Below are positions 2,458-57,926 of a stretch of 58,661 nucleotides of DNA, one piece after another. A program made the translations under genes and the position numbers. The DNA is from Candidatus Omnitrophota bacterium. GTDB taxonomy: Bacteria > Omnitrophota > Gorgyraeia > Gygaellales > Profunditerraquicolaceae. The notes beneath the pieces are model-generated. The model worked only from the letters and a program-made list of their open reading frames with translations. It ran no database searches and had not been told where the DNA came from. The stretch spans positions 1-58,661 of the forward strand of contig JBAZGE010000003.1 in the NCBI GenBank assembly GCA_041653035.1, written 5' to 3'. Each line of letters starts with the position of its first letter. The first letter of the stretch is position 1.

Positions 2458-3033
2458 ATGGTCTTAGTGATTGATAATTACGACTCATTCACCTACAACC
2501 TGGTACAGTACCTGCAGGAATTAGGGCAGCAGGTATCGGTATACCGGAACGACAAGATTACCATCGATGAGATCGGGAGACTGAGCCCTGACAGGATACT
2601 CGTCTCGCCGGGACCCGGCGGCCCGCCTGATGCCGGTATTTCCTGCGATGTGATACGGGAATTCGCCGGGAAGGTCCCTTTACTGGGGGTATGCCTGGGG
2701 CACCAGTGTATAGGTTTTACGTTCGGCGGCAGGATCAAGATCGCCCAAAAGATCATGCACGGAAAAACCTCGTTTATTTACCATAACCGGCGGGAGATTT
2801 TTCATAACATTCCTAATCCTTTTGAGGCTACCCGGTATCATTCCCTGCTGGTGGAGAATAAGAGCCTGCCTTCCTGTCTGGAAATTACCGCCTGGACCAA
2901 AGATAAAGAGATCATGGGGCTGAGGCATAAAAAATACCCGGTCTGGGGCGTTCAGTTCCATCCCGAATCAATTTTGACCAGGGCGGGTAAGGATATACTG
3001 GCTAATTTTCTCAAGGAGAAAAATAAGGGGTGA
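2458..3033 (+). CDS. trpG: anthranilate synthase component II (class-I glutamine amidotransferase, TrpG/PabA)
   Basis: GVCLGHQ nucleophile elbow and FHPES His-Glu pair. Sits immediately upstream of trpD. Confidence 0.9.
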
Positions 3034-3037
3034 AAAA

Positions 3038-4054
3038 ATGATCAAAGAAGCGACGGAAAAGATCACCGGGCATGAGCATTTATCCCGGGCGGAGATGGAA
3101 ACGGTTATCGAAGAGATCATGAGCGGTGAAACCGAAACCCCGCTTATCGTTTCCTTTCTTACCGCGCTCAGCGATAAAGGCGAAACTATCGAAGAGCTTA
3201 CCGGCGCGGTCACCGTCATGCGCCGGCATGTGACCGCGATCAATGTGCGGAAAAAGGAAGTGGTCCTGGATACCTGCGGTACCGGCGGTGACAAGAAGGG
3301 GACGTTCAATATTTCCACGGTGGTCGCTTTTGTGACCAGCGGCTGCGGGATTATTGTCGCCAAGCACGGGAACCGGTCTGTTTCCAGCCGCTGCGGAAGC
3401 GCGGACATCCTGGAAGCGCTGGGCGTCAATATCCACCTGACCAAGGAACAGATCGAGTCTTGCCTGAATGATATCGGTATTTGTTTTCTTTTCGCGCAGA
3501 ACCTGCATCCGGCCATGAAACACGTGATGCCTGCCCGGAAAACCATAGGTAAACGCACCATGTTCAACATCCTCGGCCCTTTGACCAATCCGGCGGGAGC
3601 GGCGCATCAATTACTGGGTGTTTATAACAGCGCTCTTACGGAGACCCTGGCACGGGTGCTCGCCAATCTGGGGACTGTGCACGCGCTCCTGGTGCACGGG
3701 CAGGATGGCCTGGACGAAGTCAGTACCATCGCCGGAACAACGATCTGTGAATTGCGGAAGGGGGAATTTAAAAATTTCGAGTTACAACCGGAGGATTACG
3801 GGTTTAAAAAGACCAGCTTGGAATCCCTGGCCGGCGGTTCTGCGCAGGAGAATGCCGCTATCCTTTTGGAATTGTTAAAAGGGAAAAAGGGCCCTCAAAG
3901 GGATATCGTTATTTTGAATGCCGCCTGCGCCTTGTACGCCGCGGATAAAACAAATTCGATCATAGAAGGTATTGCGCTTGCCGAGCGATCCATTGATTCA
4001 GGCAAAGCTTTTGAAAAACTGGAATTGCTGAAAGAATATTCGAACAGGAAATAA
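3038..4054 (+). CDS. trpD: anthranilate phosphoribosyltransferase
   Basis: 338 aa with the CGTGGDKKGTFNIST motif. Lies between trpG and trpC. Confidence 0.95.
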   Translation: MIKEATEKITGHEHLSRAEMETVIEEIMSGETETPLIVSFLTALSDKGETIEELTGAVTVMRRHVTAINVRKKEVVLDTCGTGGDKKGTFNISTVVAFVTSGCGIIVAKHGNRSVSSRCGSADILEALGVNIHLTKEQIESCLNDIGICFLFAQNLHPAMKHVMPARKTIGKRTMFNILGPLTNPAGAAHQLLGVYNSALTETLARVLANLGTVHALLVHGQDGLDEVSTIAGTTICELRKGEFKNFELQPEDYGFKKTSLESLAGGSAQENAAILLELLKGKKGPQRDIVILNAACALYAADKTNSIIEGIALAERSIDSGKAFEKLELLKEYSNRK

Positions 4055-4058
4055 CCGT

Positions 4059-4847
4059 ATGGCTCACGACGCTTTAAAAGAGATAATCGCCAAAAAGCGG
4101 GAGCGGGTCCTGCAGGCGAAACAGCAGCTGCCGGAGGCGGAACTGCAGGCGCGGATCAGGGATATTCCTCCGTCCCGCCGTTTTATCGAGTCGGTGGTCA
4201 AACCGAAATCGTTGACTTTGATCGCCGAGATAAAGAAGGCGTCTCCTTCTCAGGGAATCATCCGTGAGAATTTCGATCCCGTTGCCATCGCCGGGACCTA
4301 TCAGGAAGCCGGGGCCTCTGCGCTTTCCGTGCTCACCGAAGAGGATTTTTTTCAGGGGAGCCTTTCGTTCATTCCTATGGTCAAAGCAGCAGTAACCCTG
4401 CCGGTTTTAAGAAAAGATTTTATCGTGGAGCCGTATCAGGTGTATGAAGCCAGGTATTTTCAGGCAGATGCGGTGTTGCTTATTGCCGATCTTCTATCTA
4501 AAGACAAACTTATAGAGTTAATACATGTCGCCGAAGAGCTGGGGCTTGATTGTTTAGTTGAGGTTCATACCGAAAAAGAACTTAAAAAGGCCGTCGGGCT
4601 TAAGGGGCCGGTGCTTATCGGTATCAATAACCGGGATCTGCACAGCCTGGCGGTTGATTTTAAGACCACCGAGCGGCTCTTCCCGTTGATCCCCAAGGAA
4701 AAAACGGTGGTCGTGGAAAGCGGGATACGCACGTATCAGGATATCCTGTTCCTTAAAATACTGGGAGCGAGCAGCGTTCTGATCGGCCAGGCGTTCATGA
4801 GTTCTCCGGATATCAAGGCCAGCGTTCAGGAAGTGATGGGGTGGTAG
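4059..4847 (+). CDS. trpC: indole-3-glycerol phosphate synthase
   Basis: 262 aa TIM-barrel with IAEIKKASPSQG and LRKDFI motifs typical of IGPS. Confidence 0.95.
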   Translation: MAHDALKEIIAKKRERVLQAKQQLPEAELQARIRDIPPSRRFIESVVKPKSLTLIAEIKKASPSQGIIRENFDPVAIAGTYQEAGASALSVLTEEDFFQGSLSFIPMVKAAVTLPVLRKDFIVEPYQVYEARYFQADAVLLIADLLSKDKLIELIHVAEELGLDCLVEVHTEKELKKAVGLKGPVLIGINNRDLHSLAVDFKTTERLFPLIPKEKTVVVESGIRTYQDILFLKILGASSVLIGQAFMSSPDIKASVQEVMGW

Positions 4848-4875
4848 AATAGTGTAAAGTTTGTTCCGTTCCTTT

Positions 4876-4960
4876 TGTCATGCCCGCGCAAGCGGGAATC
4901 CAAAGGGGTAAACTCCAGAGGGAATCCAGATTCTGGATGCCCGCTTGCGCGGGCATGACA
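4876..4960. repeat. REP-like 85-nt palindrome (two inverted GC-rich hairpin modules)
   Basis: TGTCATGCCCGCGCAAGCGGGAATCC ... GGATGCCCGCTTGCGCGGGCATGACA. The arms are complementary except at one position, and each arm also self-folds (CCCGC-GCAA-GCGGG). Confidence 0.85.
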
Positions 4961-4999
4961 CTACTATAGATTTATGTCACAGAGCAGTAGGGTGCGTAT

Positions 5000-5650
5000 A
5001 TGAGCCGGCTTAAAGTCAAGATATGCGGTATCACCAATTTGGAGGACGCGAAAGCATCGATAGCTGCGGGGTGTGACGCGCTTGGGTTCATATTTTTCAA
5101 ACGGAGCCCGCGGTATATTCCTCCGCCGGAGGCGCGGGAGATCATAAAACGCCTGCCGGCGGGAGTCCCGAAGATCGGGGTATTTGTTAACGCCCGGGAG
5201 AAAAGCATAAAACGGACAGCCCGCCTGTGCGGCCTTGATATACTGCAATTTCACGGGAATGAATCGCCTGAATTCTGCCGCCGCTTCCGGGGAAACAAGA
5301 TCATCAAGGCGTTCAGGGTAAAGAATTCCCTGGACGTAAAAAAGATTTCGGGATACCGTGTTTTTGCGTATCTCTTCGACACTTATTCCGGTACCCAAGC
5401 CGGAGGCACCGGCAGGAAATTCGACTGGAAACTGATGGAGCGTTTACACGGCAGCACGGCCGCGGTTTTTTTATCGGGCGGCCTGAATGAAAAAAATGTA
5501 TCGCGGGCGGTCCGGACCGTGAAGCCGGAGTGGGTGGATGCCTGCAGTTCGTTGGAGATCTCCCCGGGGAGAAAAGACCACGATAAGATCAGAAAGTTTG
5601 TGCGCGCCGCAAAGTCGGGCGCAGGCATTGACAGGGCCGGACGACTCTGA
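5000..5650 (+). CDS. trpF: phosphoribosylanthranilate isomerase
   Basis: N-terminus KVKICGITNLEDA, then LQFHGNES. trp operon context. Confidence 0.9.
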   Translation: MSRLKVKICGITNLEDAKASIAAGCDALGFIFFKRSPRYIPPPEAREIIKRLPAGVPKIGVFVNAREKSIKRTARLCGLDILQFHGNESPEFCRRFRGNKIIKAFRVKNSLDVKKISGYRVFAYLFDTYSGTQAGGTGRKFDWKLMERLHGSTAAVFLSGGLNEKNVSRAVRTVKPEWVDACSSLEISPGRKDHDKIRKFVRAAKSGAGIDRAGRL

Positions 5651-5691: not shown

Positions 5692-7044
5692 ATGGCGCTT
5701 TCCGGACTTGATATCTATAAATTATTGCCGAAAACCAATTGCCGCGAATGCGGCTTTCCCACGTGTCTTGCTTTTGCCATGCAACTGGCTAAGAAATCGG
5801 CGGTAATCGATAAATGTCCGTATGTCACCGCGGATGCCAAAGCGGCTTTGGATTCGGCCAGCCAGCCGCCGATACGGCTGGTTTCTATAGGAAGCGGGGA
5901 GAAAAAACTCGACATCGGCAATGAGACCGTGATGTTCCGCCACGAGGAAAAATTCCGCAATCCCTGCGGTATCGGGTTTATTATCGATGACAGCCTGACG
6001 GACCCGGAGATAAAGAAAACGCTCCAGCGCATAAACGAGCTTACCTTTGAACGTGTCGGGCAGGTGCTTGCGGTGAATCTGGCCGCGGTCAGGCAGAATT
6101 CAAATAAAAAAAGATTTTGCGATGTGGTAAAGACGGTTTCCGGCGGTACCGCCTGCGGGATGGTGCTTATGACCGAAAACAAGGAAGCTTTGCAGGAAGC
6201 CCTTGAGCTGACTAAAGGGAAGAATCCTCTTGTGTACCGGGTGACCGCGGAAAACATTTTTTCCCTGGCCGAGACGGTTAAAAAATACAAGGTGCCCGTG
6301 GTTGCCGCTTCCGCTACCCTGGAGGGGATTTCCGGATTGACCCAGGAACTGATCAAACAGGGGATAACCGAACTGGTGCTTGATGCGGGGACGAAACCGT
6401 TGGCTGAGAAGATCGGGGATGTGACGCAGATGAGAAGGCTCGCCCTGAAGAAGTCGGCGCGCAGTTTAGGTTACCCGACGCTGGCCGTGGTGGAGAGGGC
6501 CGATCGTTTTGAAGAATGCCTGGAAGCCGCGACGTTTATCCTGAAATACGGCGGCATCGCTCTTTTAAAGGGAACCGAGAGCTGGCAGGCGCTGGCGCTT
6601 CTGACCCTGCGGCAGAATATATACTCCGATCCCCAGAAACCCCTGCAGATCGAACCCAAGGTTTATCCGATCGGGGCGGTTACCGATTCTTCTCCGGCGC
6701 TGGTCACCACGAATTTTTCGCTTTCCTATTATACCGTTCTGGGAGAGGTTGAGGCCAGTAAAGTCCCGTCATATATCTTAAGCGTGGATACCGAAGGGAT
6801 GTCGGTTTTGACCGCCTGGGCGGCGGAAAAGTTCACTCCTTCGCAAGTCAGCGCTTCCATGAAAAAATCGGGTTTGGAAAACATGGTCGGCCACCGCACG
6901 TTGATCATTCCCGGGTATGTGGCGGTGATGAGCGGAGAACTCGAAGATGTCTCGGGCTGGAAAATTGTGGTCGGCCCGAAAGAAGCGGCGGGGCTCCCGT
7001 CGTTCCTTAAGAATTTATCCGTTCCGTGCGCAGTTAAAAATTAA
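5692..7044 (+). CDS. acsC: corrinoid iron-sulfur protein large subunit (CFeSP gamma; acetyl-CoA pathway)
   Basis: N-terminal CX2CX4CX16C 4Fe-4S motif (CRECGFPTC...16 aa...C). 450 aa. Clustered with acsD and acsE. Confidence 0.9.
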   Translation: MALSGLDIYKLLPKTNCRECGFPTCLAFAMQLAKKSAVIDKCPYVTADAKAALDSASQPPIRLVSIGSGEKKLDIGNETVMFRHEEKFRNPCGIGFIIDDSLTDPEIKKTLQRINELTFERVGQVLAVNLAAVRQNSNKKRFCDVVKTVSGGTACGMVLMTENKEALQEALELTKGKNPLVYRVTAENIFSLAETVKKYKVPVVAASATLEGISGLTQELIKQGITELVLDAGTKPLAEKIGDVTQMRRLALKKSARSLGYPTLAVVERADRFEECLEAATFILKYGGIALLKGTESWQALALLTLRQNIYSDPQKPLQIEPKVYPIGAVTDSSPALVTTNFSLSYYTVLGEVEASKVPSYILSVDTEGMSVLTAWAAEKFTPSQVSASMKKSGLENMVGHRTLIIPGYVAVMSGELEDVSGWKIVVGPKEAAGLPSFLKNLSVPCAVKN

Positions 7045-8967
7045 ATGAACAAATTTAAAGTGGTTTTTTATCCCGATAACAAGAGCGTGGAAGTCCCTGA
7101 CGATACCACCATCTTGTTCGCCGCCCTTTCCGCGGGAGTTTCCCTGAATTCCACCTGCGGCGGGGACGGAGTGTGCGGCAGGTGCAAGGTTGTCCTGAAA
7201 AAAGGGCGGGTGGTGACTCAGCCTACCGGCAGGATCAGCGTGGAGGAGAAGAACAGGGGGGTGTATCTTGCCTGTTTGACCTCCATTCACAGCGATGTGG
7301 AGATCGAGGTCCCTCCTGAATCGCGGCTGGACCTGGAAAATCTTTCTCAGCAGGATGCGGAACTGCGTTTGAAAGGCATGTTCGCGCGGGCTGAAGAAGT
7401 GGAAGCCGCAATGCCGGATCTGGTGGACGGGATATTTGTCCACGCTCCGCTGGTCAGGAAAATATCCGTTACACTGCCTCGTCCCACGCACCAGGACAGG
7501 ATAAGCGATCTGGAACGATTGTACCGCGCGGTCGGTTCCGGAAAGGAACCGGCGCCGGTATTGACCGGATTGAGCAATATCCGCAGGCTGGGCGAGCTCT
7601 TGCGCGCCGCCGACTGGAATGTGACCGTGACCGTTAATTTGAAAGAGGGTGTGCGGGAGATCGTTTCCATAGAACCGGGGGATACGGAGAAAAAGAATTT
7701 CGGTTTTGCTTTTGATATCGGGACGACCACCATTTCCGGGCAGCTGGTGGATCTGAATAATAAGAAAGTATTGGGCACGAAAGCGGCGTACAATAAACAG
7801 GCCAGTTTCGGGAGCGACGTTATCACCCGTATCATTTACGCCCAGAAGACGGACGGGCTGGAAAAACTGCACCACGCGGTCATCGATACCATGAATGAGA
7901 TCATCCATGATCTGGCCGCGGAACACCAGGTGGACCTTAATGACGCCTCCGGTGTTACCTGCGCGGGCAACACCACCATGATCCACCTTTTATTACGCAT
8001 CGATCCCGCGTATATCAGGAGAGAGCCGTACGTGCCGACGGCAAATGCCGTGCCGGTGATCCGCGCGGCGGAGAGCGGGATAAAAATAAGCCCGCGCGGC
8101 CTCTTATATTGTGTTCCCGGCGTAGCCAGTTATATCGGGGGGGATGTTACCGCGGGGGTTTTATCCTGCGGCCTTGACCGGGAGAACGAGGTATGCATGT
8201 TGATCGATATCGGTACCAACGGCGAGATCGTGGTGGGGAACAGGGATTTCCTGATCGCCGCTTCCGCTTCCGCGGGGCCGGCTTTTGAAGGCTCGGGGGT
8301 GAGCTGCGGAATGCGCTCAAGCAAAGGGGCCATCCAGAAAGTGCGCTTGGAGAGGACGTCTCCGCCCGTGTATGAAACCATCGGCGGCGGAAAACCGCGC
8401 GGCATATGCGGTTCCGGATACATTGATGGTATCGCGGCAATGCTCAGGGCAGGCCTTCTGGATAAAGACGGTAAGATAAAAGACGGGACTAATGAACGGG
8501 TGCGGGAAGGGCAATTCGGCCGGGAGTTCGTGCTGGCCTGCAAGAATGAAGCGGATGCCGATTCGGATATTTTTATAACCGAAGCCGATATCGAGAACAT
8601 CAAGCGCGCCAAAGCCGCTATTTACGCGGCGGCGCATATCCTCCTGCGGCATTGCGATATGGATTTTAAGGATGTGAAAAAGATTTTTATTGCCGGCGGT
8701 TTCGGCACTTGCATAGACATGGAAAATGCCGTTACCTTGGGGCTCTTGCCCGATATAGAACGGAAGAAATTCCTGTTTGTGGGTAATAGTTCTCTCGCGG
8801 GGAGCCGTTCCACGCTCCTGTCGGAGGAAGCGTTCCATAAAAGCTATGAGATCGCCGGGAAGATAACCTATTTTGAACTTTCCGTTGAACCGGAATATAT
8901 GGATGAATATATGGCGGCGTTGTTTTTTCCGCATACCGACCTGAACCGGTTCCCGACAGTCCTATGA
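7045..8967 (+). CDS. reductive activator of corrinoid proteins (RACo/AcsV-like: 2Fe-2S ferredoxin plus ASKHA ATPase)
   Basis: N-terminal plant-type ferredoxin motif STCGGDGVCGRCKV...ACLT, followed by an ASKHA-type FDIGTTTISG phosphate-binding motif. 640 aa. Its start abuts the acsC stop. Confidence 0.8.
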   Translation: MNKFKVVFYPDNKSVEVPDDTTILFAALSAGVSLNSTCGGDGVCGRCKVVLKKGRVVTQPTGRISVEEKNRGVYLACLTSIHSDVEIEVPPESRLDLENLSQQDAELRLKGMFARAEEVEAAMPDLVDGIFVHAPLVRKISVTLPRPTHQDRISDLERLYRAVGSGKEPAPVLTGLSNIRRLGELLRAADWNVTVTVNLKEGVREIVSIEPGDTEKKNFGFAFDIGTTTISGQLVDLNNKKVLGTKAAYNKQASFGSDVITRIIYAQKTDGLEKLHHAVIDTMNEIIHDLAAEHQVDLNDASGVTCAGNTTMIHLLLRIDPAYIRREPYVPTANAVPVIRAAESGIKISPRGLLYCVPGVASYIGGDVTAGVLSCGLDRENEVCMLIDIGTNGEIVVGNRDFLIAASASAGPAFEGSGVSCGMRSSKGAIQKVRLERTSPPVYETIGGGKPRGICGSGYIDGIAAMLRAGLLDKDGKIKDGTNERVREGQFGREFVLACKNEADADSDIFITEADIENIKRAKAAIYAAAHILLRHCDMDFKDVKKIFIAGGFGTCIDMENAVTLGLLPDIERKKFLFVGNSSLAGSRSTLLSEEAFHKSYEIAGKITYFELSVEPEYMDEYMAALFFPHTDLNRFPTVL

Positions 8968-8970
8968 GTA

Positions 8971-9046
8971 GTGCGCCGTGACATTAATTTTTAATCACGG
9001 CGCACTGGAGTTCCGCCCTTGACATCGTAGATGTCAAGGGCGGAAC
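8971..9046. repeat. two consecutive perfect hairpins downstream of the RACo gene
   Basis: GTGCGCCGTGA-13 nt-TCACGGCGCAC (11 bp) followed by GTTCCGCCCTTGACATC-GTA-GATGTCAAGGGCGGAAC (17 bp). No U tract follows. The CCCTTGACA core recurs at 12003-12028. Confidence 0.85.
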
Positions 9047-9093
9047 GGTCTATTGTCGATTTTCTATTGTTCACGCAAAACGTTTAGAAATTT

Positions 9094-9849
9094 ATGGTAC
9101 AAGGTAATAGAGTTATCGCGGTGGCGGGAAAAGGCGGCACGGGCAAGACCACTATCGCTTCCCTTATTGTCGGGATACTCGGCGCGAAAACGGATTCGGT
9201 GCTGGGTATCGATGCCGATCCAAACAGTAATTTGGCCGAATCCCTGGGGCTTTTCGTCCAGGAGACCATCGGCGGGATGCTCGATGATATCGCGGCTCAT
9301 CCCGATACCGTCCCCAAAGGGATGACTAAGGACCGGTTTATCGATTATAAGGTGCAGACTCTGGTCCAGGAATCGAAGGGGTTCGATATTTTATCCATGG
9401 GCAGGCCGGAAGGATCGGGGTGTTATTGTTACGTGAATAATGTCCTGCGCGGCGCCATGGGTAAACTTATCAAGGATTACGAATACACGGTGATCGATAA
9501 CGAGGCGGGGCTGGAACATTTTTCCCGCCGGACCACCCGGCAGGCGGATGTCTTGTTCGTGGTTTCGGATGCCTCGGCTATGGGGCTGAAGGCGGCACGG
9601 CGCATCCATGATCTGGTCAAAGAGTTGAAAATAAAAATTAAGCACAGTTACCTGTTGGTCAACCGTTTCAGCGGCACGCTCGAGGAAAAAAAAGTGCAGG
9701 ACACCGGCCTGGAGTACATCGGTAGTATTCCCGAAGACCCGCAGGTCGCTTCTTTGAGTTTGAACGGTGAATCTCTGCTGATGCTGAACAAGGATGCGGT
9801 AAGTTTGAAGTCTTTGCGGGCGCTTTTAGAGAAAACAAAAATACTTTAA
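9094..9849 (+). CDS. cooC: CooC/AcsF-type Ni-insertion ATPase (MinD/ParA-like P-loop)
   Basis: Deviant Walker A GKGGTGKTT and the CXC metal motif GSGCYCY. Located inside the acs cluster. Confidence 0.85.
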   Translation: MVQGNRVIAVAGKGGTGKTTIASLIVGILGAKTDSVLGIDADPNSNLAESLGLFVQETIGGMLDDIAAHPDTVPKGMTKDRFIDYKVQTLVQESKGFDILSMGRPEGSGCYCYVNNVLRGAMGKLIKDYEYTVIDNEAGLEHFSRRTTRQADVLFVVSDASAMGLKAARRIHDLVKELKIKIKHSYLLVNRFSGTLEEKKVQDTGLEYIGSIPEDPQVASLSLNGESLLMLNKDAVSLKSLRALLEKTKIL

Positions 9850-9861
9850 AAGGAGTCGGAT

Positions 9862-10836
9862 ATGGCGATTGAAATGCTGACTGAAAAATGGCCGGGGAAA
9901 GTGAACGAAGTGATCATTGGGGCCGATAAAAGCGAAGGGGGAACCCGTTCAACCGTGGTCAAAGTGGGGGGGGAAGCAACCATGCCGTTTTTATTCCGCG
10001 AAGGAACTGTCCCGCATAACCCGGTCATCGCTTTTGAAATATGGGATACTGCCCCGGCCGACTGGTCCGATGAGCTGAATAAATCCCTGGGGAGCGTTTA
10101 TCAGGATCCTCTGGCATGGGCGGAGAAGTGCGTTAAGGAATATAAAGCCCGGCTTTTGTGCGTGAAACTGCAGGGCGCGCATCCGGATTCCGGGAACCGC
10201 TCCGCGGATGCCGAAGCCAAGTTTATCTCCCGGTTGTTGAAAAAGGTCTCTGTTCCTTTGATCATAACCGGATGCGGCGATGATGCCAAGGATAACCAGG
10301 TTCTTCCTGCCTGCTGCGAAGCCGCCAAAGGCGAACGCTGCCTGATCGGCGACGCGGTGCAGGATAATTATAAGACCCTGGCCGCCGCGGTTTCCGCTGA
10401 CGGGCACAGTATAATCGCCGAATCGCCTATCGATATAAATATAGCCAAACAATTGAATATCCTTATTTCGGATATGGGATTGCCGGTGGAACGTATTGCC
10501 ATAAACCCGACCATCGGCGCGATGGGCTATGGCCTGGAATACGCGTATTCGATCATGGAACGCGCCCGGCTGGCCGCACTTTCCGGGGATAAAATGATGG
10601 CTTCGCCGTTCATCTGTTTCGTGGGACAGGAAACATGGAAGACCAAGGAAGCAAATGCCTCGGCCGTCGAATTCCCTTCCTGGGGCCCGGAAGCGGAACG
10701 GGGGATTGCCTGGGAGATGATGACCGCCGCGGCTTTACTGCAGGCAGGAGCGGATATCTTAGTTATGCGGCATCCGAAAGCCGTGGAGAAAGTTCAAAAG
10801 TACATAGACGAGTTGATGGCGGGGAGCAAGGCGTAG
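9862..10836 (+). CDS. acsD: corrinoid iron-sulfur protein small subunit (CFeSP delta)
   Basis: 324 aa. Recognisable CdhD/AcsD-type sequence (EIWD..., PLIITGCGD...). Cluster context with acsC and acsE. Confidence 0.85.
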   Translation: MAIEMLTEKWPGKVNEVIIGADKSEGGTRSTVVKVGGEATMPFLFREGTVPHNPVIAFEIWDTAPADWSDELNKSLGSVYQDPLAWAEKCVKEYKARLLCVKLQGAHPDSGNRSADAEAKFISRLLKKVSVPLIITGCGDDAKDNQVLPACCEAAKGERCLIGDAVQDNYKTLAAAVSADGHSIIAESPIDINIAKQLNILISDMGLPVERIAINPTIGAMGYGLEYAYSIMERARLAALSGDKMMASPFICFVGQETWKTKEANASAVEFPSWGPEAERGIAWEMMTAAALLQAGADILVMRHPKAVEKVQKYIDELMAGSKA

Positions 10837-10883
10837 GAGTAAAAGAACCCGGGAGCACCAGAACACCGGTGCGCCAGATCACC

Positions 10884-10958
10884 AGTTAGTGCATAAGTCT
10901 GGCTCTTAGCTCGCGGATTAGAGTTAAACTTATGCACTTACGCACCCATGCACTAACC
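10884..10958. repeat. palindrome of the GTGCATAAG type (acsD-acsE spacer)
   Basis: AGTTAGTGCATAAGT ... ACTTATGCACTTACGCACCCATGCACTAACC. The stem is at least 11 bp (GTGCATAAGT/ACTTATGCAC). Confidence 0.8.
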
Positions 10959-10997
10959 TATGCTCCAGGTTGAAATTTTTAAAAGGAGGGATTGAAC

Positions 10998-11786
10998 GTG
11001 TTCATCATCGGCGAACTTATAAACGGGATGTACGCGGATATCGGCAAGGCCATAAAGGCCAAGGATAAGGCGCCGGTTCAAGCCTGTGCTTTGAAACAGG
11101 TGCACAGCGGGGCACACGCTTTGGACGTGAATTGCGGCCCGGTTTCCCGCGATCCGGTACAGGATATCAAATGGCTGGTGGAGGCTATTCAGGAAGTCAC
11201 CGATATCCCGCTGGTACTGGATTCAAGCAAACCGCAGGTTATTCAAGCGGGTTTGGACGCGGCCGGGAACAAGGTGATCATTAATTCTACGACTGCCGAT
11301 GCAGATAAATTAAAAGTCCTTGTTCCTCTGGCAAAAAAATATAATGCCGGGCTCATCGGTTTGACCATGAGCGCCAAGGGTATCCCGCAGAATAAAGATC
11401 AGCGCCTGGAATTGGCCGCGGAGATAGTAGCTTTCTGTGTGGACCAGGGTTTTCCGGTGGATGAGCTGTATCTCGACCCGGTGGTCATGCCGGTCAAGGT
11501 CGCCCAGTCCCAGATGAAGGATATCCTGGAGTCGATGCAGGAGTTCAAGCTTATTTCCGACCCCGCTCCCAAGACGGTTGTGGGGTTGAGCAATGTTTCT
11601 CAAGGCGCCTGCGGCAGGAAATTGATCAACCGGACGTTCCTGATAATGGCCGCCGCCTTCGGGCTGGATGCGGCCATCCTGGACCCGACCGACCAGGACC
11701 TGATGGACGCGCTGATAACCGCCGAGCTGGTCCTGGACAAACAGATCTACTGCGACTCGTATTTAGACGCATATCGCAAAAAATAG
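10998..11786 (+). CDS. acsE: methyltetrahydrofolate:corrinoid/iron-sulfur protein Co-methyltransferase (pterin-binding, DHPS-like)
   Basis: N-terminus (M)FIIGELINGMYADIGKAI is typical of MeTr/AcsE. GTG at 10998 is better spaced from the GGAGGG Shine-Dalgarno than the ORF-track TTG at 10992. Confidence 0.85.
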   Translation: MFIIGELINGMYADIGKAIKAKDKAPVQACALKQVHSGAHALDVNCGPVSRDPVQDIKWLVEAIQEVTDIPLVLDSSKPQVIQAGLDAAGNKVIINSTTADADKLKVLVPLAKKYNAGLIGLTMSAKGIPQNKDQRLELAAEIVAFCVDQGFPVDELYLDPVVMPVKVAQSQMKDILESMQEFKLISDPAPKTVVGLSNVSQGACGRKLINRTFLIMAAAFGLDAAILDPTDQDLMDALITAELVLDKQIYCDSYLDAYRKK

Positions 11787-11795
11787 CAGGCACCC

Positions 11796-12192
11796 GGCAT
11801 TTTGCCTGCGGACTTATGGCCGTCACGAAAATTTTTGCCGTCGGCTGCGGCTTACGCTTCGCTGCAGGCGCGAAAGATAAAAGCCCCGGAAGAAATCGGG
11901 GCATTTCCTCGCTCAGAAAGATTTTTCCCCGCCGCTTTGCTGCGCAAAGCGAAACGCGGGGACCGCAAAATTTATTCCGCGTTTTCGGCGGCTGCGGAAC
12001 TCGCCCTTGACACTTCTGTGTCAAGGGCTCAGACATCCTCGCCGTCCCGGTATTGTCGCTTCGCTCCACCGGGATACCCGAAACCGCAGAATAAATTTTG
12101 CTAAAATCTTAATTCGCGAATAAACGCCCCGATTTTTTCCCGGGCTAAATGTGGAGAAGATGTGCCGGCCATAACTCCTCCGGCAAAATGCC
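11796..12192 (+). mobile_element. MITE-like element, copy A (397 bp, with extra internal hairpin modules)
   Basis: Terminal inverted repeats GGCATTTTGCCTGCGG ... CCTCCGGCAAAATGCC. The first ~77 nt and last ~35 nt are near-identical to copies B and C. No coding capacity. Confidence 0.75.
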
Positions 12193-12282
12193 TTGAGATT
12201 TGCGGAAGCTACTTTGCCTAAAAGCCCCATTCGCAAAAATTCCGTCAGATTCATTAAAGGTTGTGTTAAAATAAGGTTGCTT

Positions 12283-12864
12283 GTGAAAAATAAGAATGTT
12301 TATATAATCGCCGGGCCGAATGGGGCGGGTAAAACTACTTTTGCGACTATGTTTTTACCCGATTACGCCCAATGTCCACATTTCGTAAATGCCGATTTGA
12401 TCGCTCTGGGGTTGGCGCCGTTTGAGCCGCGCAGCGCGGCCATTAAAGCCGGCAAGCTTGTGTTACAGCAGATTCATGATTTTTCCGCGCGGGGAATTGA
12501 TTTTGCTTTTGAAACAACCCTTTCCGGCATGTCATATGTTAAATTACTTACTGAATTAAAGGCAAAGGGATATGGTTTGCATCTTTTTTTTCTCTGGATA
12601 CCGAATCCGGAGTTAGCCATAGTTCGCATCAAAGAGAGGGTTTTAGAAGGCGGGCATGATGTTCCGTCCCAGGATGTCCGGCGGCGTTTTATTAGGGGGA
12701 TCAGTCATTTTTTTAATTTATATGAGTCTTTATTTGATTCCTGGATGTTGTTCGATAATTCAAAAGCAAAACCGGTTTTGATTGCGAAAAGGCGTAATGG
12801 TCATAACGAGATTCTGGATGAAGAATTATTCGCGCGTGTTCAAAAAATGCGGGGGAATAGATGA
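12283..12864 (+). CDS. zeta-toxin-like / COG4185-type P-loop kinase-fold protein
   Basis: Walker A GPNGAGKTT near the N-terminus, then NADLIA and GGHDVP..VRRRF segments typical of zeta-toxin-family ATPases. Probable GTG start at 12283; the ORF-track extension back to 12193 runs into a MITE end. Confidence 0.7.
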   Translation: MKNKNVYIIAGPNGAGKTTFATMFLPDYAQCPHFVNADLIALGLAPFEPRSAAIKAGKLVLQQIHDFSARGIDFAFETTLSGMSYVKLLTELKAKGYGLHLFFLWIPNPELAIVRIKERVLEGGHDVPSQDVRRRFIRGISHFFNLYESLFDSWMLFDNSKAKPVLIAKRRNGHNEILDEELFARVQKMRGNR

Positions 12865-13013
12865 AAAAACGGATGTCGTTACAGGATAAGGCGGAAGCGG
12901 CGATGAAGGCGGCGGTTCGCGGGGTTGTGGAGCGGCATAAGAAGTCTGGCCGCCCGTTGGCTATTTGGGAAAAAGGCAGGGTTGTTCGTATTTCTCCTTA
13001 TTCCGTGAAGTAA
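12861..13013 (+). CDS. unannotated 50-aa ORF coupled to the zeta-like gene (candidate partner or antitoxin)
   Basis: An ATGA overlap joins its ATG (12861) to the TGA of the upstream gene (12862-12864). Translation: MKKRMSLQDKAEAAMKAAVRGVVERHKKSGRPLAIWEKGRVVRISPYSVK*. It falls below the ORF-track length cutoff. Confidence 0.4.
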   Translation: MKKRMSLQDKAEAAMKAAVRGVVERHKKSGRPLAIWEKGRVVRISPYSVK

Positions 13014-13037
13014 TTCCAGGTACCCCTTGCGGGGCTC

Positions 13038-13220
13038 GGCATTTTGCCGGAGGATGTATGGCCGGCACAATTAGAAATTTTTTGGCATAATTGTAGTTAA
13101 ACTGTCGGTCGGCAAGGAATTACGCTGAGCGGAAGGCGAGGGGAGATAACTATCTCGCGCCTGCAGCGAAGCGTAAGCCGCAGCCGACGGCAAAAATTAT
13201 ACACCCGCAGGCAAAATGCC
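13038..13220 (-). mobile_element. MITE-like element, copy B (183 bp, inverted relative to A and C)
   Basis: Begins GGCATTTTGCCGGAGG and ends CCGCAGGCAAAATGCC. Its reverse complement aligns along its whole length with copy C. Confidence 0.8.
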
Positions 13221-13242
13221 TCGGGTCGATGAAGGTGGAGAA

Positions 13243-14427
13243 ATGATGCTACCAAACAAACGGGGATATTTCGGGGAGTTCGGCGGGCGGTTTGTGCCGG
13301 AGACGCTGGTCAACGCGCTGGAGGAGTTGGAGACGGCGTATGAAAAGGCGCGGCGCGATGTTTCATTCCGCCGGGAACTGGCGTATTACCTTCGGGAATA
13401 TGCCGGTCGTCCCACGTCGCTGTACCTGGCCCGTAATCTGAGCAGGCATTTCGGCATAGAAAAGATCTATCTGAAGAGGGAAGATCTTCTGCATACCGGC
13501 GCCCATAAGATCAATAATACGCTCGGCCAGGCATTGCTGGCGAAGCGCATGGGAAAGAAGCGGGTCATTGCCGAGACCGGAGCGGGACAGCATGGGGTTG
13601 CCACCGCTACTGTGGCGGCTTTGTTCGGGATGAGCTGCAGCGTGTATATGGGTGAGGAAGATATCGAACGGCAGAAACTCAATGTGTTTCGCATGAAGCT
13701 TCTGGGGGCGGAGGTCGTACCGGTAAAAAGCGGCTCAAAGACTTTAAAGGATGCCATCAATGAGGCGATGCGGGAGTGGGTCACTACGGTAAAGGATACG
13801 TTCTACATTTTCGGGACGGTAGGCGGCCCGCATCCCTATCCGTTGATAGTAAGGGATTTTCAGTCTATAATCGGCAGGGAAGTCAGGAGGCAGATAGTGG
13901 AGAAAGAAGGAAAGCTTCCGGATTACTTAGTTGCCTGTGTCGGAGGGGGAAGCAATTCCATAGGTTTGTTTTACCCGTTTTATAAAGACGCGAAGGTGCG
14001 GTTTATCGGCGTGGAAGCCGGGGGATCGGGAATCTCGACCGGGAAACATTCGGCGACCCTGTCTGCCGGAAAACCGGGCGTTTTGCACGGGGCGAAGTCA
14101 TACCTGTTGTCCGATCCCTACGGGCAGATCAAGCCCACTCATTCCATTGCCGCCGGGCTCGATTATCCGGGAGTGGGGCCGGAACACTCCTATTATAAGG
14201 AAAGCGGCAGGGCGGAGTATGTTTCGGTGACGGATACCGAAGCATTGAAGGCGCTGTCCCTTCTTTCGCGCGAAGAGGGGATTATCCCGGCGCTGGAATC
14301 ATCGCACGCGCTGGCCTATCTTGAAAAAATGGCGAAAAAAATAAACAAACGGTCGATCGTGATCGTCGGCTTATCCGGCAGAGGCGATAAGGATATGCAT
14401 ACCGTGGTGGAGAGATTAATTGAATAG
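13243..14427 (+). CDS. trpB: tryptophan synthase beta chain
   Basis: [14 protein letters not shown]-terminus and the PLP lysine motif [19 protein letters not shown] Shine-Dalgarno precedes ATG 13243. The ORF-track ATG at 13216 lies inside a MITE terminal repeat. Confidence 0.95.
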
Positions 14428-15211
14428 AATAGATAAAAAATTCCAGGAGTTAAAGAAACAGGGGAAAAAGGCGTTCATCGCGTTCTTGACTGCCGGGTAT
14501 CCCAGCTTGGACGTTACCGGGCGGCTGATCACGGAATTGGGCAGGGAGCAGGCGGATATTATCGAGATCGGCGTCCCTTTTTCGGATCCGATCGCGGACG
14601 GCCCGGTCATCCAGGAAGCTTCCCATGCAGCCCTCAAGAAGGGCGTTACCATGGAAAAGATCTTTGCCATGGTCGGGAAACTGCGTTCACGGACGCAGGT
14701 GCCGGTATGCCTGATGTTGTATTACAACATAATATTTACCTATGGCGAGAAACGTTTTATCGATCGCGCGGCTGCCTGCGGTATCGACGGGGTTATTATC
14801 CCGGATCTGCCTGCTGAAGAAAGCGGTGTGTTTTCGAAGTACGCCCGCGCGCGCGGCATACATACCATCAATTTTATATCGCCCACGTCTTCCCGGGAAC
14901 GCATAAAGAAGACGGCTTTGTCCGCGAAAGGGTTTATTTATTATATTTCGCTGACCGGGGTCACCGGGCCCCGGATGAAGCTTCCGGCCGATCTTGCCGC
15001 GAAGGTGCGCGCGGTCAAACGGATGACCGGGACTCCCGTGTGCGTGGGGTTCGGGGTTTCTTCGCCGGAGCAGGTTAAAGATGTCTGCCGGTTCGCGGAT
15101 GGGGTGATCGTGGGCAGTGCGTTGATCAGGATGATCAAGTCCTGCATGGGCAGGGCGGATCTGGTTAAAAAAATATGTTCGTACGTGTCATTCCTGCGGG
15201 CGCAGGAATGA
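14420..15211 (+). CDS. trpA: tryptophan synthase alpha chain
   Basis: [18 protein letters not shown] motif. 8-nt overlap with trpB. The last codons and the stop run into a REP-like hairpin. Confidence 0.93.
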
Positions 15212-22163: not shown

Positions 22164-22268
22164 TAATCCCCTCCGCAAAATCCTCGGTCTTCAGACCGGG
22201 GATAGGAATCTATGGATGTGTTTTTTTGCTTCGGGGAGGGAGCCTTGCCTTTAAGCTGAGGGGCTCCC
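22164..22268 (+). repeat. structured ~105-nt repeat, copy E1 (candidate sRNA or small mobile palindrome)
   Basis: Near-identical to 58501-58606. Predicted helices: CCCTCC..GCAAAA / TTTTGC..GGAGGG; CCTCGGTC-TTCA-GACCGGGG; GGAGCC...GGCTCC. Confidence 0.6.
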
Positions 22269-31783: not shown

Positions 31784-31873
31784 CTTAGTGTATAAGTTTG
31801 TAAGTGTAAAAAAAAGACTGAGCACTTAGTGCGGCAGCGCTTACACACTTTATACTTACAAACTTACACACTA
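31784..31873. repeat. short-tandem-repeat palindrome, GTAAGT type (metK-ahcY spacer)
   Basis: Left arm TAGTGTATAAGTTTGTAAGTGTAAA. The right arm's reverse complement reads TAGTGTGTAAGTTTGTAAGTATAAAGTGTGTAAGC (2 mismatches in 25). Confidence 0.88.
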
Positions 31874-31893
31874 TTTGAAGACAGGAGGATGAT

Positions 31894-33153: not shown

Positions 33154-33243
33154 AGTAAGTAGTGTGTAAGTTTTTAAGTGTACAGTGTGTAAGTGATCAA
33201 TGTGTTTTTACTTACAAACTTTACACTTACACACTTTACACTA
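33154..33243. repeat. short-tandem-repeat palindrome, GTAAGT type (ahcY-DUF4139 spacer)
   Basis: Left arm AGTAAGTAGTGTGTAAGTTTTTAAGTGTACAGTGTGTAAGTG. Right arm CTTACAAACTTTACACTTACACACTTTACACTA. Confidence 0.88.
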
Positions 33244-33258
33244 ACGAGGGGGGATGCG

Positions 33259-39185: not shown

Positions 39186-40853
39186 ATGACCGGCGCAGAG
39201 ATAATCATTGAATGTTTGAAACGAGAAGGCGTAGAGGTGATCTTCGGTTACCCGGGCGGACAGGTTTTGCCGCTTTTTGATAAGCTTTATGATTGCGGTA
39301 TCCGTTTCATTCTTCCCCGTCATGAACAGGCCGCCGCGCATGCCGCGGACGGATATGCGCGGGCCACCGGAAAAACGGGGGTTTGTATCGCGACCTCCGG
39401 GCCGGGGGCGACCAATCTGGTTACCGGTATCGCGACCGCGTATATGGATTCTATTCCCATGGTGGCGATAACCGGACAGGTCAAGACCTCCGTGATCGGC
39501 AACGACGCTTTTCAGGAAGCGGATATTACCGGGATCACCCGGCCGATCACCAAACATAATTACCTGGTTAAAAATGTGAAGGACCTGGCGCTTATTATCC
39601 GCGAGGCTTTTCTTATCGCGTCAACCGGGCGTCCGGGGCCGGTGGTCATCGATATTCCGTCCGATGTACAACAGAAGGAAACCGAATTCATCTGGCCCGA
39701 GGAAGTGCATATCCGGGGGTACAAACCGACCTATTTCGGCCATCCCGGACAGATCAAAAAAGCGGCCGGTCTGATAAAACGTTCGAAACGGCCGATTATT
39801 TATGCCGGCGGCGGGGTGATCACCTCGGGCGCGCACCTGGAGCTCAAAGCGTTGGCTGAGAAGATACAGGCTCCGGTGACCTGGACGCTGATGGGGATAG
39901 GCGGGTTCCCCACGATGCATAAACTGAGCGTGGGCATGCTGGGGATGCACGGGACGGTTCCCGCCAATTATGCAATAACCGAATCGGATCTGATCCTTGC
40001 CGTGGGCGCGCGTTTTGACGACCGGGTTACCGGAAGATTGGATGCCTTTGCTCCGAACGCCAAGATAATCCATATCGATATCGATCCATCGTCCATAAGC
40101 AAGAACGTAAAAGTGGATGTTCCTATTGTGGGTGATGCGAAAAATATACTCGGCCAGTTGATCGAAGAGGTCAATAAACCCCCGGATACGGCCGAATGGC
40201 TGAAAACCGTGGACAGTTGGAAAAAGAAAAGCCCGTTGAAATACAATAATGAAGGCACGAAGATCAAACCGCAGTATGTGATCGAACAGATCTGTGAAGT
40301 CACCAAGGGGGAAGCGCTCATTGCCACGGAAGTCGGCCAGCACCAGATGTGGGCCTGTCATTGGTATCGATATTCCCATCCGCGCACCTTCATCTCTTCC
40401 GGAGGACTGGGAACCATGGGGTTCGGTTTCCCGGCGGCCATGGGGGTGAAACTGGGGTGTCCCGATAAGATTGTTTTCGATATTGCCGGCGACGGTTCTA
40501 TCCAGATGAATATACAGGAACTGGCCACGTGCGTGTGCAATAAGATCCCGGTCAAAGTGGCCATATTAAATAACGGATTTTTGGGGATGGTGAGGCAGTG
40601 GCAGGAATTGTTCTACAACCGTCGTTATTCGCATACCAGTCTTTACAACCCCGATTTTGTTAAACTCGCCGAAAGCTACGGGGCAGCGGGTATAAAGATC
40701 ACCCGGAAAGAGGATGTGCGCCACGCCCTGGAAAAGGCGATCGCTATCGATAACGTGGTTTTTCTTGATTTTCACGTGGAATCCGAGGAAAATGTTTTTC
40801 CGATGGTCCCCGCGGGAGAAGCGGTGAACAGGATGATCGGAGGAATGGCGTAA
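39186..40853 (+). CDS. ilvB: acetolactate synthase large subunit
   Basis: [26 protein letters not shown]-terminus and ThDP motif [12 protein letters not shown]...NNG. Confidence 0.95.
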
Positions 40854-40956
40854 GTTCGTAATTCGTAATCAGTAAATCGTAATCCGTAATTACGAGGAAT
40901 TCTTAATATATAACATTTTCCTTTTACGAATTACCAATTACGGATTACGATTTACG
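40854..40956. repeat. short-tandem-repeat palindrome, CGTAAT type, exact 7-nt period (ilvB-ilvN spacer)
   Basis: (C/A)GTAA starts at 40857, 40864, 40871, 40878, 40885. The inverted TTAC starts at 40924, 40931, 40938, 40945, 40952. Confidence 0.9.
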
Positions 40957-40986
40957 AAAAAAGTGTGAATGAGGGGATTTACAAAG

Positions 40987-41477: not shown

Positions 41478-42470
41478 ATGGCTAAGATCTATTATGATAA
41501 GGACGCTGATTTGAATGTGTTAAAAAACAAAAAAGTCGCCATTATCGGTTACGGGATCCAGGGGCGCGGGCAGAGCTTGTGCCTGAGGGACAGCGGGGTA
41601 CAGGTTATTGTTTCGGAATTAGAAGGTACCGTGAATTATGCGAAGGCAAAGGAAGATAAGTTCATTCCCGTGAGCGTGAAGGCTGCGGCTCAGAATGCGG
41701 ATGTCATTCAGATCCTTACGCAGGACCACGTACAGGCAAAGGTCTATAAGGACTCGATCGAACCGAATCTGGTCAAGGGAAAGTCGCTTTGTTTTTCGCA
41801 CGGGTTTAACATTCATTTTAAGCAGATCGTTCCTCCGAAATTCGTAGATGTTTTTATGATCGCTCCCAAAGGGCCCGGAGCGCTGGTGCGCAGGATGTAC
41901 GAAGAGGGTAAAGGCGTGCCTTGTTTGGTCGCTGTTCATCAGGATGCCAGCGGCAAGGCTTTAGATATCGCTTTGGCCTACGCGAAAGCTTTAAAAGCGA
42001 CCACGGCGGGTGTGATCGGGACCACTTTCAAGGAGGAGACCGAAACCGACCTTTTCGGCGAACAGGCGGTATTGTGCGGAGGTGTTTCGGAATTGATAAC
42101 CGCGGGTTTCGATACTTTGATCAAAGCCGGGTATCAGCCGGAAATCGCTTATTTCGAAGTCCTGCACGAGTTGAAATTGATCACCGATCTCATACAGGAA
42201 AGGGGCATTTCCGGGATGAGGCGGAGCGTTTCCAATACCGCCTGCTACGGCGATTTGAGCAGAGGGAAAAGGATAATCAACGCCAAGACACGCGCCGAGA
42301 TGAAGAAGATACTTAAAGAGATACAGAGCGGTAAGTTCGCCAAGGAATGGATACGGGAGAACGAGAAGGGCAGGCCGAACTTCAATAAACTTTTGAAGAA
42401 AGGCGACGAACATAAGATTGAAGAAGTAGGACGAAAGTTGCGAGAGATGATGCCGTGGATGAAAAAATGA
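41478..42470 (+). CDS. ilvC: ketol-acid reductoisomerase
   Basis: [19 protein letters not shown] Rossmann motif. 330 aa, class I KARI. Confidence 0.95.
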
Positions 42471-42477
42471 TTTAAAA

Positions 42478-42574
42478 AACGTAAACCGTAATTCGTAATA
42501 CGTAAAAGGAAAGTGCGATATGACACAATTCCTTTTTGTTGCGGATTACGATTTACGGATTACGATTTACGATT
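42478..42574. repeat. short-tandem-repeat palindrome, CGTAAT type (ilvC-leuA spacer)
   Basis: CGTAA at 42480, 42487, 42494, 42501. TTACG at 42546, 42553, 42560, 42567. The right arm ends at the leuA ATG. Confidence 0.9.
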
Positions 42575-44080: not shown

Positions 44081-44195
44081 AAATCGTAATCCGTAAATCG
44101 TAATTCGTAATTCGTAAATCGTAATAATAAGGCATGCTTTAAATAGAATAATTCCAAACAATTACGATTTACGCATTACCAATTACGGATTACGA
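44081..44195. repeat. short-tandem-repeat palindrome, CGTAAT type (leuA-aroE spacer)
   Basis: Six CGTAA units at an exact 7-nt spacing (TAA at 44087, 44094, 44101, 44108, 44115, 44122). Inverted arm AATTACGATTTACGCATTACCAATTACGGATTACG. Confidence 0.9.
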
Positions 44196-44218
44196 AAATA
44201 AATGATTTCCTTTTATTT

Positions 44219-52140: not shown

Positions 52141-52312
52141 TGAAGGTTAAAGGAAGTTAAAGATGGTTAATGATGGTTAAAAGCAAATTCGTCTGAGACG
52201 ATGCTGCTGAAGTAAATATTAAAAAAATGTTCATTATAGGTTTATTATTTTAACAGGCATTTTTTTAACTTTCTTTAACCGCATTTAACCGTCTTTAACC
52301 AGCATTAACCTG
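52141..52312. repeat. inverted arrays of GGTTAA units with an exact 10-nt period (pnp-ftsK spacer)
   Basis: GTTAA at 52146, 52156, 52166, 52176. TTAAC at 52266, 52276, 52286, 52296, 52306. An AT-rich spacer of about 75 nt lies between the arrays. Confidence 0.9.
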
Positions 52313-54763: not shown

Positions 54764-54824
54764 TTCCTGAAATGGTTATTTTAACAAACTGTTGTATGTA
54801 CTCTTTAGAGCGGATGGGAGTAAT

Positions 54825-57730: not shown

Positions 57731-57926
57731 GGCATTTTGCCTGCGGATTTATGTCCGTCACGAAAATTTTTGCCGTCGGCTGCGGTTTACGCTTCACTCC
57801 AGGCGCGGGATAATAGGCGGGTCATCGCCTTGCGCTTAGCGTAATTCCTTGCCGACCGAAAGTGCAGCAGGGGATATGGCAAAAATTTTCTAATTGTGCC
57901 GGCCATAACTCCTCCGGCAAAATGCC
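57731..57926 (+). mobile_element. MITE-like element, copy C (196 bp)
   Basis: Same TIRs and internal sequence as copy B (for example GCCGTCGGCTGCGG(C/T)TTACGCTTC and GCGTAATTCCTTGCCGACCGA). Ends 9 nt before the pgpA ATG. Confidence 0.8.

Follow-up and report, generated by a model that had tools for sequence, protein, structure and literature searches.

Palindromic repeats of an Omnitrophota lineage around a toxin-antitoxin-like cassette between acsE and trpB

[quoted passage not shown] They form subfamilies with internal rearrangements, and they can be co-transcribed as long hairpins, which are processed or stabilise or terminate transcripts (PMC10969869). REPINs persist at orthologous sites, evolve much slower than neutral DNA and keep the complementarity of their arms (PMC3116915; 10.1101/2021.07.10.451892). 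Besides, MITEs and similar elements can bound composite units, such as the pair of 439-bp MITEs around class 1 integrons of Acinetobacter (PMC3934969) and the Tn3-derived TIME-COMPs (PMC4133298). Here we analysed a 58,661-nt (58.7-kb) stretch of DNA from a Candidatus Omnitrophota bacterium, which we call the window. In it, two copies of a palindromic repeat, A and B, bracket a two-gene toxin-antitoxin-like cassette between acsE and trpB, and a third copy, C, stands alone. Coordinates refer to the window unless they carry the L number of another contig.

A, B and C are copies of a previously undescribed family of ~196-bp non-coding palindromic repeats of an Omnitrophota lineage (type 1 in what follows), with GGCATTTTGCC termini. 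We know of no repeat family described from Omnitrophota, a phylum for which nearly all knowledge comes from metagenomes; the window adds this family plus a second, mosaic one. Inverted repeats around an AT-rich toxin-antitoxin pair mimic a composite transposon, and the original prediction, made from the window alone, read them in this way. This inference is attractive but in our view wrong, because the cargo appears to predate the bracket. We consider it likely that the copies settled singly around a resident cassette, and that the bracket is a by-product of independent insertions and not a vehicle, since the cassette would already have been in place and B and A would have been acquired separately.

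Like Correia, NEMIS and ERIC repeats, the type-1 elements are ~100-200 bp long, non-coding, intergenic, bounded by terminal inverted repeats, often just upstream of genes and co-transcribable as long hairpins. They differ in having no sequence similarity to them, no match in Rfam for any element and neither TA nor any other regular target duplication. Neither a promoter nor an IHF site was seen in them, and the host is an uncultured Omnitrophota lineage. With the REP/REPIN-RAYT systems they share a palindromic, extragenic, single-hairpin form and, for one orthologous pair (B), persistence with compensatory changes; however, they are about twice as long as is usual for REPINs, a GTAG-type REP head could not be recognised in them, and no RAYT gene was seen in the available DNA. 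As in MITE-bounded composites, two copies of one non-autonomous element bracket a cargo with no transposase inside. The known composites have identical or nearly identical copies, a target duplication around the unit and were seen as an insertion, whereas A and B differ in structure, no duplication surrounds them and the cargo appears older than one copy. An integron cassette with attC sites was rejected: the repeats lie in opposite orientation, their termini are GGCATTTTGCC and not GTTRRRY, and the window has no integrase.

The acsE-trpB junction and its relatives

The junction consists of the following features, L008 being a syntenic relative with ~81% nucleotide identity to the window (a 225-kb contig of NCBI assembly GCA_020047475.1).

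10992..11786, + strand: acsE, methyl-H4folate:corrinoid methyltransferase (Pfam Pterin_bind/CdhD; homologues so named by JGI)
11796..12192, + strand: element A, a 397-bp mosaic palindrome with family left arm, foreign nested-hairpin core and family right arm
12283..12864, + strand: kinase gene, zeta/AvrRxo1-like P-loop protein of 193 aa, GTG start, Walker A GPNGAGKT
12861..13013, + strand: partner open reading frame (ORF) of 50 aa, coupled, its ATG overlapping the kinase stop (ATGA)
13038..13220, - strand: element B, a type-1 copy that lacks 12 nt internally; its orthologue is L008:4774-4971
13246..14427, + strand: trpB (Pfam PALP), start chosen by agreement with L008 (MLPNKRGYF)

The coordinates given for A, the inverted copy B and C in the original prediction were correct to the base, and its statement that only the zeta-like gene and the coupled 50-aa ORF lie between A and B was correct as well. 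What decides the history of this arrangement is the comparison with L008. It carries the kinase homologue P0029 (79% identical) and is collinear with the window through RACo, cooC, cdhD, acsE, kinase, small ORF, trpB, trpA, M16 peptidase and CNNM. Its acsE-kinase spacer measures 92 bp and is without a repeat, that is, A is absent. A relative with the cassette at a conserved site and no flanking repeats was what the original prediction had named as evidence against itself, and L008 largely is such a relative, with A missing and B present.

Nucleotide identities between window and L008 are 0.818 for the kinase and 0.804 for the small ORF. For the neighbours they are 0.795 (cooC), 0.815 (cdhD), 0.816 (acsE), 0.817 (trpB) and 0.787 (trpA). 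The cassette was therefore inherited in place with its neighbours, its divergence being equal to that of acsE, trpB, cdhD, cooC and trpA. At four-fold sites the kinase has an identity of 0.65 with L008, and non-syntenic kinase homologues show nucleotide identities of 0.74-0.77, below the value for L008. The AT-richness that had been noticed by eye is real: GC and GC content at third codon positions (GC3) are both 0.43 in the kinase vs 0.52-0.54 and 0.63-0.69 in six neighbouring genes. Kinase GC3 is, however, 0.45 in L008 and 0.39-0.46 in four other genomes, whatever the local GC. Thus, low GC3 is a family trait and not the mark of a recent arrival. Finally, the A-to-B unit has no target-site duplication, its flanks being ...GGCACCC before A and TCGGGTC after B.

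Other relatives inform on the acsE side. L026, a closer relative (AcsE 92%), has an ordinary 196-bp-type type-1 element after acsE in A's orientation. BLAST shows it to be collinear with window 10999-11883 from acsE through the repeat arm, and the left arm of A is probably orthologous to this element. The L027 contig (AcsE 87%) terminates in GGCATTTT, 62 nt past the acsE stop, and probably carries a repeat at A's site. In the more distant L028 (78%), recA follows acsE, from which we take the acsE-cassette-trpB junction to be clade-specific.

On the trpB side, the start that matches L008 is the ATG at 13246, not 13216. The Shine-Dalgarno sequence AAGGTGGAG at 13231-13239 lies outside B, which ends 10 nt before it. 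The predicted location at the junction of the acs module and trpB stands, both flanking genes being confirmed by Pfam; the ribosome-binding site of trpB is itself not part of the repeat. L008 has a full-length type-1 copy between the small ORF and trpB, at B's exact position and in its orientation. The junctions are common to both: ...CTC is followed by GG(C/T)ATTTTGCCGGAGG at one end of the element, and CCGCAGGCAAAATGCC is followed by TCG(G/A)G at the other.

Sequence conservation of B is well above that of its surroundings. B and its L008 orthologue are identical at 157/182 positions (86%), vs 51-59% (~55%) at four-fold sites of neighbouring genes and 43%, effectively random, in the other intergenic spacers (binomial p ~5e-18; ~3e-11 with gaps counted as mismatches). 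The two orthologues share four exclusive sites, the most of any pair of copies (others 0-3), among them a T:A to G:C change in both arms (alignment columns 19/181); two further stem pairs are doubly changed in other copies. Because of this conservation and the shared compensatory pair, the hairpin looks constrained, REPIN-like. Either the B hairpin is under selection or copies were homogenised by conversion, and a single orthologous pair fits both. In B we have one clear example of a repeat whose conservation at an orthologous site far exceeds that of neutral sequence.

The junction lies within a split trp operon. trpG, trpD, trpC and trpF (2458-5650) come first, followed by an acetyl-CoA-synthase module of five genes (CdhD/FeS subunit, RACo, cooC, cdhD and acsE; 5692-11786), the zeta cassette, and trpB with trpA (13246-15211). 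The right-hand junction of the split is common to L008.

The repeat family and the mosaic element A

Six occurrences of the terminal motif GGCATTTTGCCKGVGG were counted in the window (11796, 12177(-), 13038, 13205(-), 57731 and 57911(-)); they form three inward-facing pairs (11796/12177, 13038/13205 and 57731/57911). The expectation from shuffles is 0.33 (~18-fold enrichment), and 0/100 shuffles reached six. Every copy bears GGCATTTTGCC(T/G)G(C/A)GG at both ends, with complementarity reaching ~45 nt, and in the 58.7 kb a profile search with nhmmer recovered no locus other than A, B and C. Relative to A and C, B has the opposite orientation. The elements are 183-198 bp long (397 bp for the mosaic A) and non-coding, the ORFs inside them being frame-scan artefacts only. 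Thus, they have the small size (<~500 bp), non-coding nature, terminal inverted repeats and multiple copies of MITEs, without the target duplication. The intact form of the window is C:

57731..57926, + strand: element C, an intact 196-bp type-1 copy that stands alone between pgsA and pgpA

C ends 9 nt ahead of the pgpA ORF start and pairs nearly full-length into one hairpin (DNA minimum free energy -49 kcal/mol, z = -5.9). The type-1 consensus has 62 end-to-end pairs across five copies, and double compensatory changes occur at three stem pairs among only these five.

We searched for further copies in metagenomes and in genome databases. The metagenome scan yielded three contigs from two landfill samples. 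Window 8785-9951 recurs at 100% identity in a contig of one of these two samples, and L002 shows that this JGI sample series includes the window organism. Solo type-1 copies follow an ftsW/rodA-family gene (L005, L004) or stand in an unrelated context (L003). The landfill contigs add three contexts to the three loci of the window, and copies also occur in two related lineages; the family has at least six independent sites. Of what the original prediction had proposed to check, the existence of other copies was confirmed, the repeat being found at unrelated loci: between pgsA and pgpA, after an ftsW/rodA-family gene, in a hypothetical-gene context and at acsE/zeta/trpB. Five full copies and several arms are mutually 83-89% identical in a star-like relationship. 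All of them are intergenic, in spacers between co-directional genes. A strict 27-nt terminal pattern had 0 matches in GTDB representative genomes and 0 in viral contigs, and a looser two-terminus gap pattern had 14 in GTDB representatives (~chance level), 0 of them homologous by BLAST.

Target-site duplications, which had also been proposed as a check, gave no regular pattern across the flanks of six insertions, weak evidence given the few copies. Two-nucleotide flank matches are limited to C (CC) and the B pair (GA), and A, L003 and L005 show none. A GAG lies 0-2 nt outside the GGAGG-side terminus in 6/6 insertions.

Three ~180-bp whole-length palindromes were observed in a Spirochaetaceae metagenome-assembled genome (MAG), Ncb351_bin73 (L015:6124-6303, L018:205-382, L022:3012-3190). 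They have the same 11-nt tips, GGCATTTTGCC / GGCAAAATGCC, with CC...GG flanks, and the remaining sequence is unrelated. They may be a distinct family that uses a related enzyme.

Element A is of a different build. Its parts are as follows.

11796..11873, + strand: type-1 left arm, 92-95% identical to C, L003, L026 and B over 66-78 nt
11874..12146, + strand: core, a nested-hairpin module of ~270 nt unrelated to the C-type interior
12003..12028, + strand: apex hairpin GCCCTTGACA-N6-TGTCAAGGGC, the centre of A
12160..12192, + strand: right arm, type-1 right terminus (nhmmer match to profile positions 164-196)

A folds into one long hairpin (DNA minimum free energy -118 kcal/mol, z = -12.4) and contains nested inverted repeats (I2, I4, I5). 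The outer termini of A and B form a perfect 16-nt inverted repeat (11796-11811 / 13205-13220), and the right arm of A is 94% complementary to 13038-13069. The internal match between A and B noted originally at about 11835-11872 and 13158-13195 is real and longer, 44 nt at 100% complementarity (11830-11873 vs 13155-13198). On the other hand, C does not show what an unoccupied A would look like, as had been proposed: A is not a filled-in C. Of the family sequence it retains 78 nt on the left and 32 nt on the right, and the C-type middle 86 nt are replaced by the unrelated core. A simple nested insertion was rejected as well, as the middle 86 nt are missing, not split.

The core of A is 80% identical to L005:957-1208, a longer (type-2) element, and 97% identical to L001 (L001/L004), and its hairpin arms co-vary between variants. 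The long element of L005 has a variant left terminus, GGTATTTTGTCTGCGG, and a degenerate right end. In L001/L004 the core is joined to an L005-type left end and an A-type right end. Three of the four combinations of ends and core were thus found: L1-core-R1 (window), L2-core-R1 (L001/L004) and L2-core-R2 (L005), which makes a recombinant mosaic the best description of A.

The palindrome GCCCTTGACA...TGTCAAGGGC also stands alone at 9015-9041 (pattern search, 2 matches vs 0 expected), which suggests a small REP-like unit, found alone and nested. It is one of two strong hairpins (8972-9006, 9015-9041) in the 126-nt RACo-cooC spacer; RACo and cooC overlap in L008.

The cassette has a second context, in L004 (JGI) and L001 (ENA), which are independent assemblies. 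Both have zero differences from the window over 12176-12980 and a different, L005-type left context: ftsW/rodA-family gene, solo type-1 copy, spacer and left end of the long element. The half-element upstream of the cassette has five differences from the window at 12076-12175, and the segment shared with the window begins inside A (~11935; perfect from 12176). Both contigs stop at 12980, within the small ORF. The left context is 99% identical in L005, where it is followed by that contig's own element end and by another small module of two genes (a weak match to MazE_antitoxin and an overlapping 93-aa ORF). Neither boundary of the shared segment coincides with a repeat terminus, one lying within A's core and the other within the small ORF, so this join is most likely due not to transposition but to gene conversion or homologous recombination, by way of the long elements and of the cassette itself, between strains or between loci next to repeats. 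The data may fit inversion, duplication or conversion alike. An assembly chimera was judged unlikely for L004, given that the JGI and ENA assemblies give the identical join; it is also disfavoured by the five private differences and by a perfect identity between L005 and the window of only ~51 nt at the crossover.

A short repeat adjoins type-1 elements in two contigs (…CTGTAGG(G/A)CGTGTTT(A/T)CCGAAC… / …CGC(A/G)CCGAATCTCAG(C/T)TTGA(A/G)GTT…). It was seen at L003:505-535, L005:752-812 and L005:1300-1345, twice within L005.

Order of events and alternative readings

In the history that we favour, the cassette would already have stood between acsE and trpB in the common ancestor of the window genome and L008. 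B would have entered the pre-trpB spacer in or before that ancestor and been retained afterwards. The acsE-side spacer would have gained its own copy later, or L008 would have lost one, and in the window lineage recombination with a longer related palindrome would have remodelled this copy into the mosaic A. The elements would spread one copy at a time by means of an enzyme encoded elsewhere. Once inserted, they would be transcribed in operons as long hairpins, with processing, stabilisation or termination of the transcript as possible outcomes, and could in this way influence the expression of trpBA and of the cassette. Their similarity would make them substrates for recombination, producing mosaics like A and reshuffling adjacent cassettes.

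Several points weigh against this history. Most copies are known from short metagenome contigs only. A's site holds no repeat in L008 and a normal copy in L026, but the spacers are too diverged to reveal a clean empty site. An attempt to find one to the nucleotide failed, the window and L008 acsE-zeta spacers being unalignable (43% identity), and the absence of A from L008 could therefore be a later deletion. The orthology of B depends on its position and on only four shared exclusive sites, as the difference between any two copies is about equal, at 11-17%. Finally, L004 and L001 could mean that core, right arm and cassette travel together, and these contigs end inside the small ORF, so that the shared segment may reach further to the right.

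It is possible, although we would not expect it, that the repeats are host-maintained palindromes of the REP/REPIN or Correia/ERIC type and not DDE MITEs. They would be rarely copied, for instance by a single-copy tyrosine transposase acting on single-stranded hairpins, and vertically inherited, and they would be kept for what the hairpin does in DNA or mRNA between co-directional genes, for example in processing, stabilisation or termination. The conservation of B, the end-to-end pairing with its compensatory changes, the invariant GAG next to insertions that have no consistent target duplication, and the intergenic position of all copies in a nearly all co-directional genome agree with this. 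Moreover, REPINs persist vertically for very long (PMC3116915; bioRxiv 10.1101/2021.07.10.451892). However, no RAYT or IS200-like gene is present in the 58.7-kb window, and 196 bp exceeds typical REPINs. The termini resemble ordinary terminal inverted repeats, with a subterminal TTTTGCC repeat that in our reading suits binding sites of a DDE transposase. Gene conversion among copies could mimic constraint, and a scan of A and B for promoter and terminator consensus sequences found nothing above shuffle level.

A broader and more tentative idea is that the palindromes are REPIN-like long-term residents of Omnitrophota, with hairpins under purifying selection, built of exchangeable modules (arms, cores, apex hairpin), and with recombination swapping toxin-antitoxin cassettes between loci. 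The zeta pair that replaces a MazE-like pair downstream of the same ftsW/rodA-linked element (L004 vs L005) would be an example. If the conservation seen in B is general, these elements would add a second example of hairpin repeats that persist vertically, one from outside Proteobacteria, and they would be useful markers of recombination-driven reshuffling of toxin-antitoxin cassettes. Such repeats also explain the contig breaks of this lineage at these spots.

It is unlikely that the two B copies are not orthologous and that a strong target preference led to independent insertion upstream of trpB in both lineages, with nothing old or constrained about them. For this, one can point out that the window B is no nearer to the L008 B (86%) than to paralogues (84-86%), and that the GAG-containing flank at all insertions hints at target selectivity. 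Nevertheless, the two copies have one orientation and match at both junctions to the nucleotide, no other pair shares as many exclusive sites as the B pair, the paired two-arm change among them, and the remaining spacer is too diverged (43-70% identity) to have kept a long specific target.

The composite non-autonomous transposon of the original prediction, with A and B as ends moved by a transposase supplied in trans and the cassette as cargo brought into the acsE-trpB junction, is highly improbable: the perfect outer termini, the foreign-looking composition of the cargo, its second occurrence beside an element with the same right arm (L004/L001) and the precedents of MITE-bounded integrons in Acinetobacter (PMC3934969) and of TIME-COMPs (PMC4133298) would suit it, but L008 has the cassette and B without A, the cassette has diverged as its neighbours have, its GC3 is equally low in both lineages and in contexts unrelated to this one, the unit has no target duplication, A is a mosaic with a core unrelated to B, and the segment shared with L004 is bounded (inside A; at 12980 in the small ORF) by no repeat terminus.

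The original prediction had found neither transposase nor integrase by reading, and a Pfam scan of ~50 window ORFs likewise contained none; the ORFs with a match were all housekeeping genes, and the window genes lie nearly all on one strand.

The cassette proteins and further repeats of the window

The kinase matches Pfam Zeta_toxin (PF06414) with E=2.8e-11 and 43.7 bits vs a cutoff of 22.3. Its homologues number ~8000, measure 190-193 aa, share 74-85% identity with it and come mostly from Omnitrophota MAGs, where they are labelled 'zeta toxin family protein'. Its AlphaFold (AF2) model (pLDDT 84.5) has AvrRxo1-ORF1 as best Foldseek match (TM score 0.80, E=5.5e-10), then PezT and zeta (E ~5e-9). 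The structures are 4z8q, 2p5t and 1gvn, identity to solved structures is 13-19%, and a sequence search of the PDB found no solved relative. NCBIfam and PADLOC were uninformative for the cassette proteins. The 50-aa partner had no match in Pfam, NCBIfam or PADLOC, and exact-protein look-ups of this ORF and of AcsE found no record.

The order of AvrRxo1-ORF1 and ORF2 is toxin first, as the titles of PDB entries agree. The cassette is most likely a toxin-first toxin-antitoxin pair, by prediction, with the 50-aa ORF as presumed antitoxin. It resembles zeta, PezT and AvrRxo1 in having a P-loop kinase of zeta fold, and AvrRxo1-ORF2 in the small partner gene directly downstream. It differs from epsilon/zeta in its toxin-first order, and from the known systems in its kinase length (193 aa vs ~240-330 aa), in a partner without detectable relation to epsilon, PezA or Arc1, and in the unusual conservation of the pair (72-85%) across many Omnitrophota genomes. 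The same conservation extends to a Syntrophaceae MAG. Together with the host-independent GC3 (about 0.40-0.46), it points to horizontal exchange that is frequent or to a strong constraint on the nucleotide sequence.

The partner is kept at 72-82% identity right after the kinase in four other contexts:

L006: cysS/tmk
L008: syntenic
L010: Fic/MpsC
L032: fourth context

Overall, a downstream ORF of 50-56 aa overlaps or abuts the kinase stop in five contexts. The pair lies at cysS-tmk (L006), beside Fic/MpsC (L010) and after NTase/HEPN (L031), in none of these with the family repeat. From these contexts, the cassette appears to move independently of the type-1 repeats. In L031, a second homologue of the small ORF (93-244) was observed upstream of the NTase/HEPN pair (314-2140), ~1.2 kb before the zeta-like kinase gene, which suggests tandem toxin-antitoxin cassettes forming an island.

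Apart from the type-1 family, the window contains other repeats. A second, unrelated inverted-repeat family with termini GTCTGCTGAAAAAGCCTCA...TGAGGCTTTTTGAGCAGAC has copies at 54557-54764 (208 bp) and 57594-57715 (122 bp). The 122-bp copy ends 15 nt before C, and the 208-bp copy apparently has extra internal hairpins. A third dispersed repeat of 79 nt, 82% identical, lies at 22177-22255 and 58515-58593, both intergenic, and contains a CCGGTCTTCAGACCGG hairpin. Finally, many spacers have tandem arrays of short period (7-10 nt), often as inverted pairs on both sides of a gene boundary. The units vary by spacer group (AGTGTAA/CTTACAC, CGTAATT/AATTACG and AAGGTTAAAG/TTTAACC), and the spacers are:

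993-1086
2375-2449
31840-31876
33157-33246
40849-40964
42462-42575
44081-44196
52121-52310

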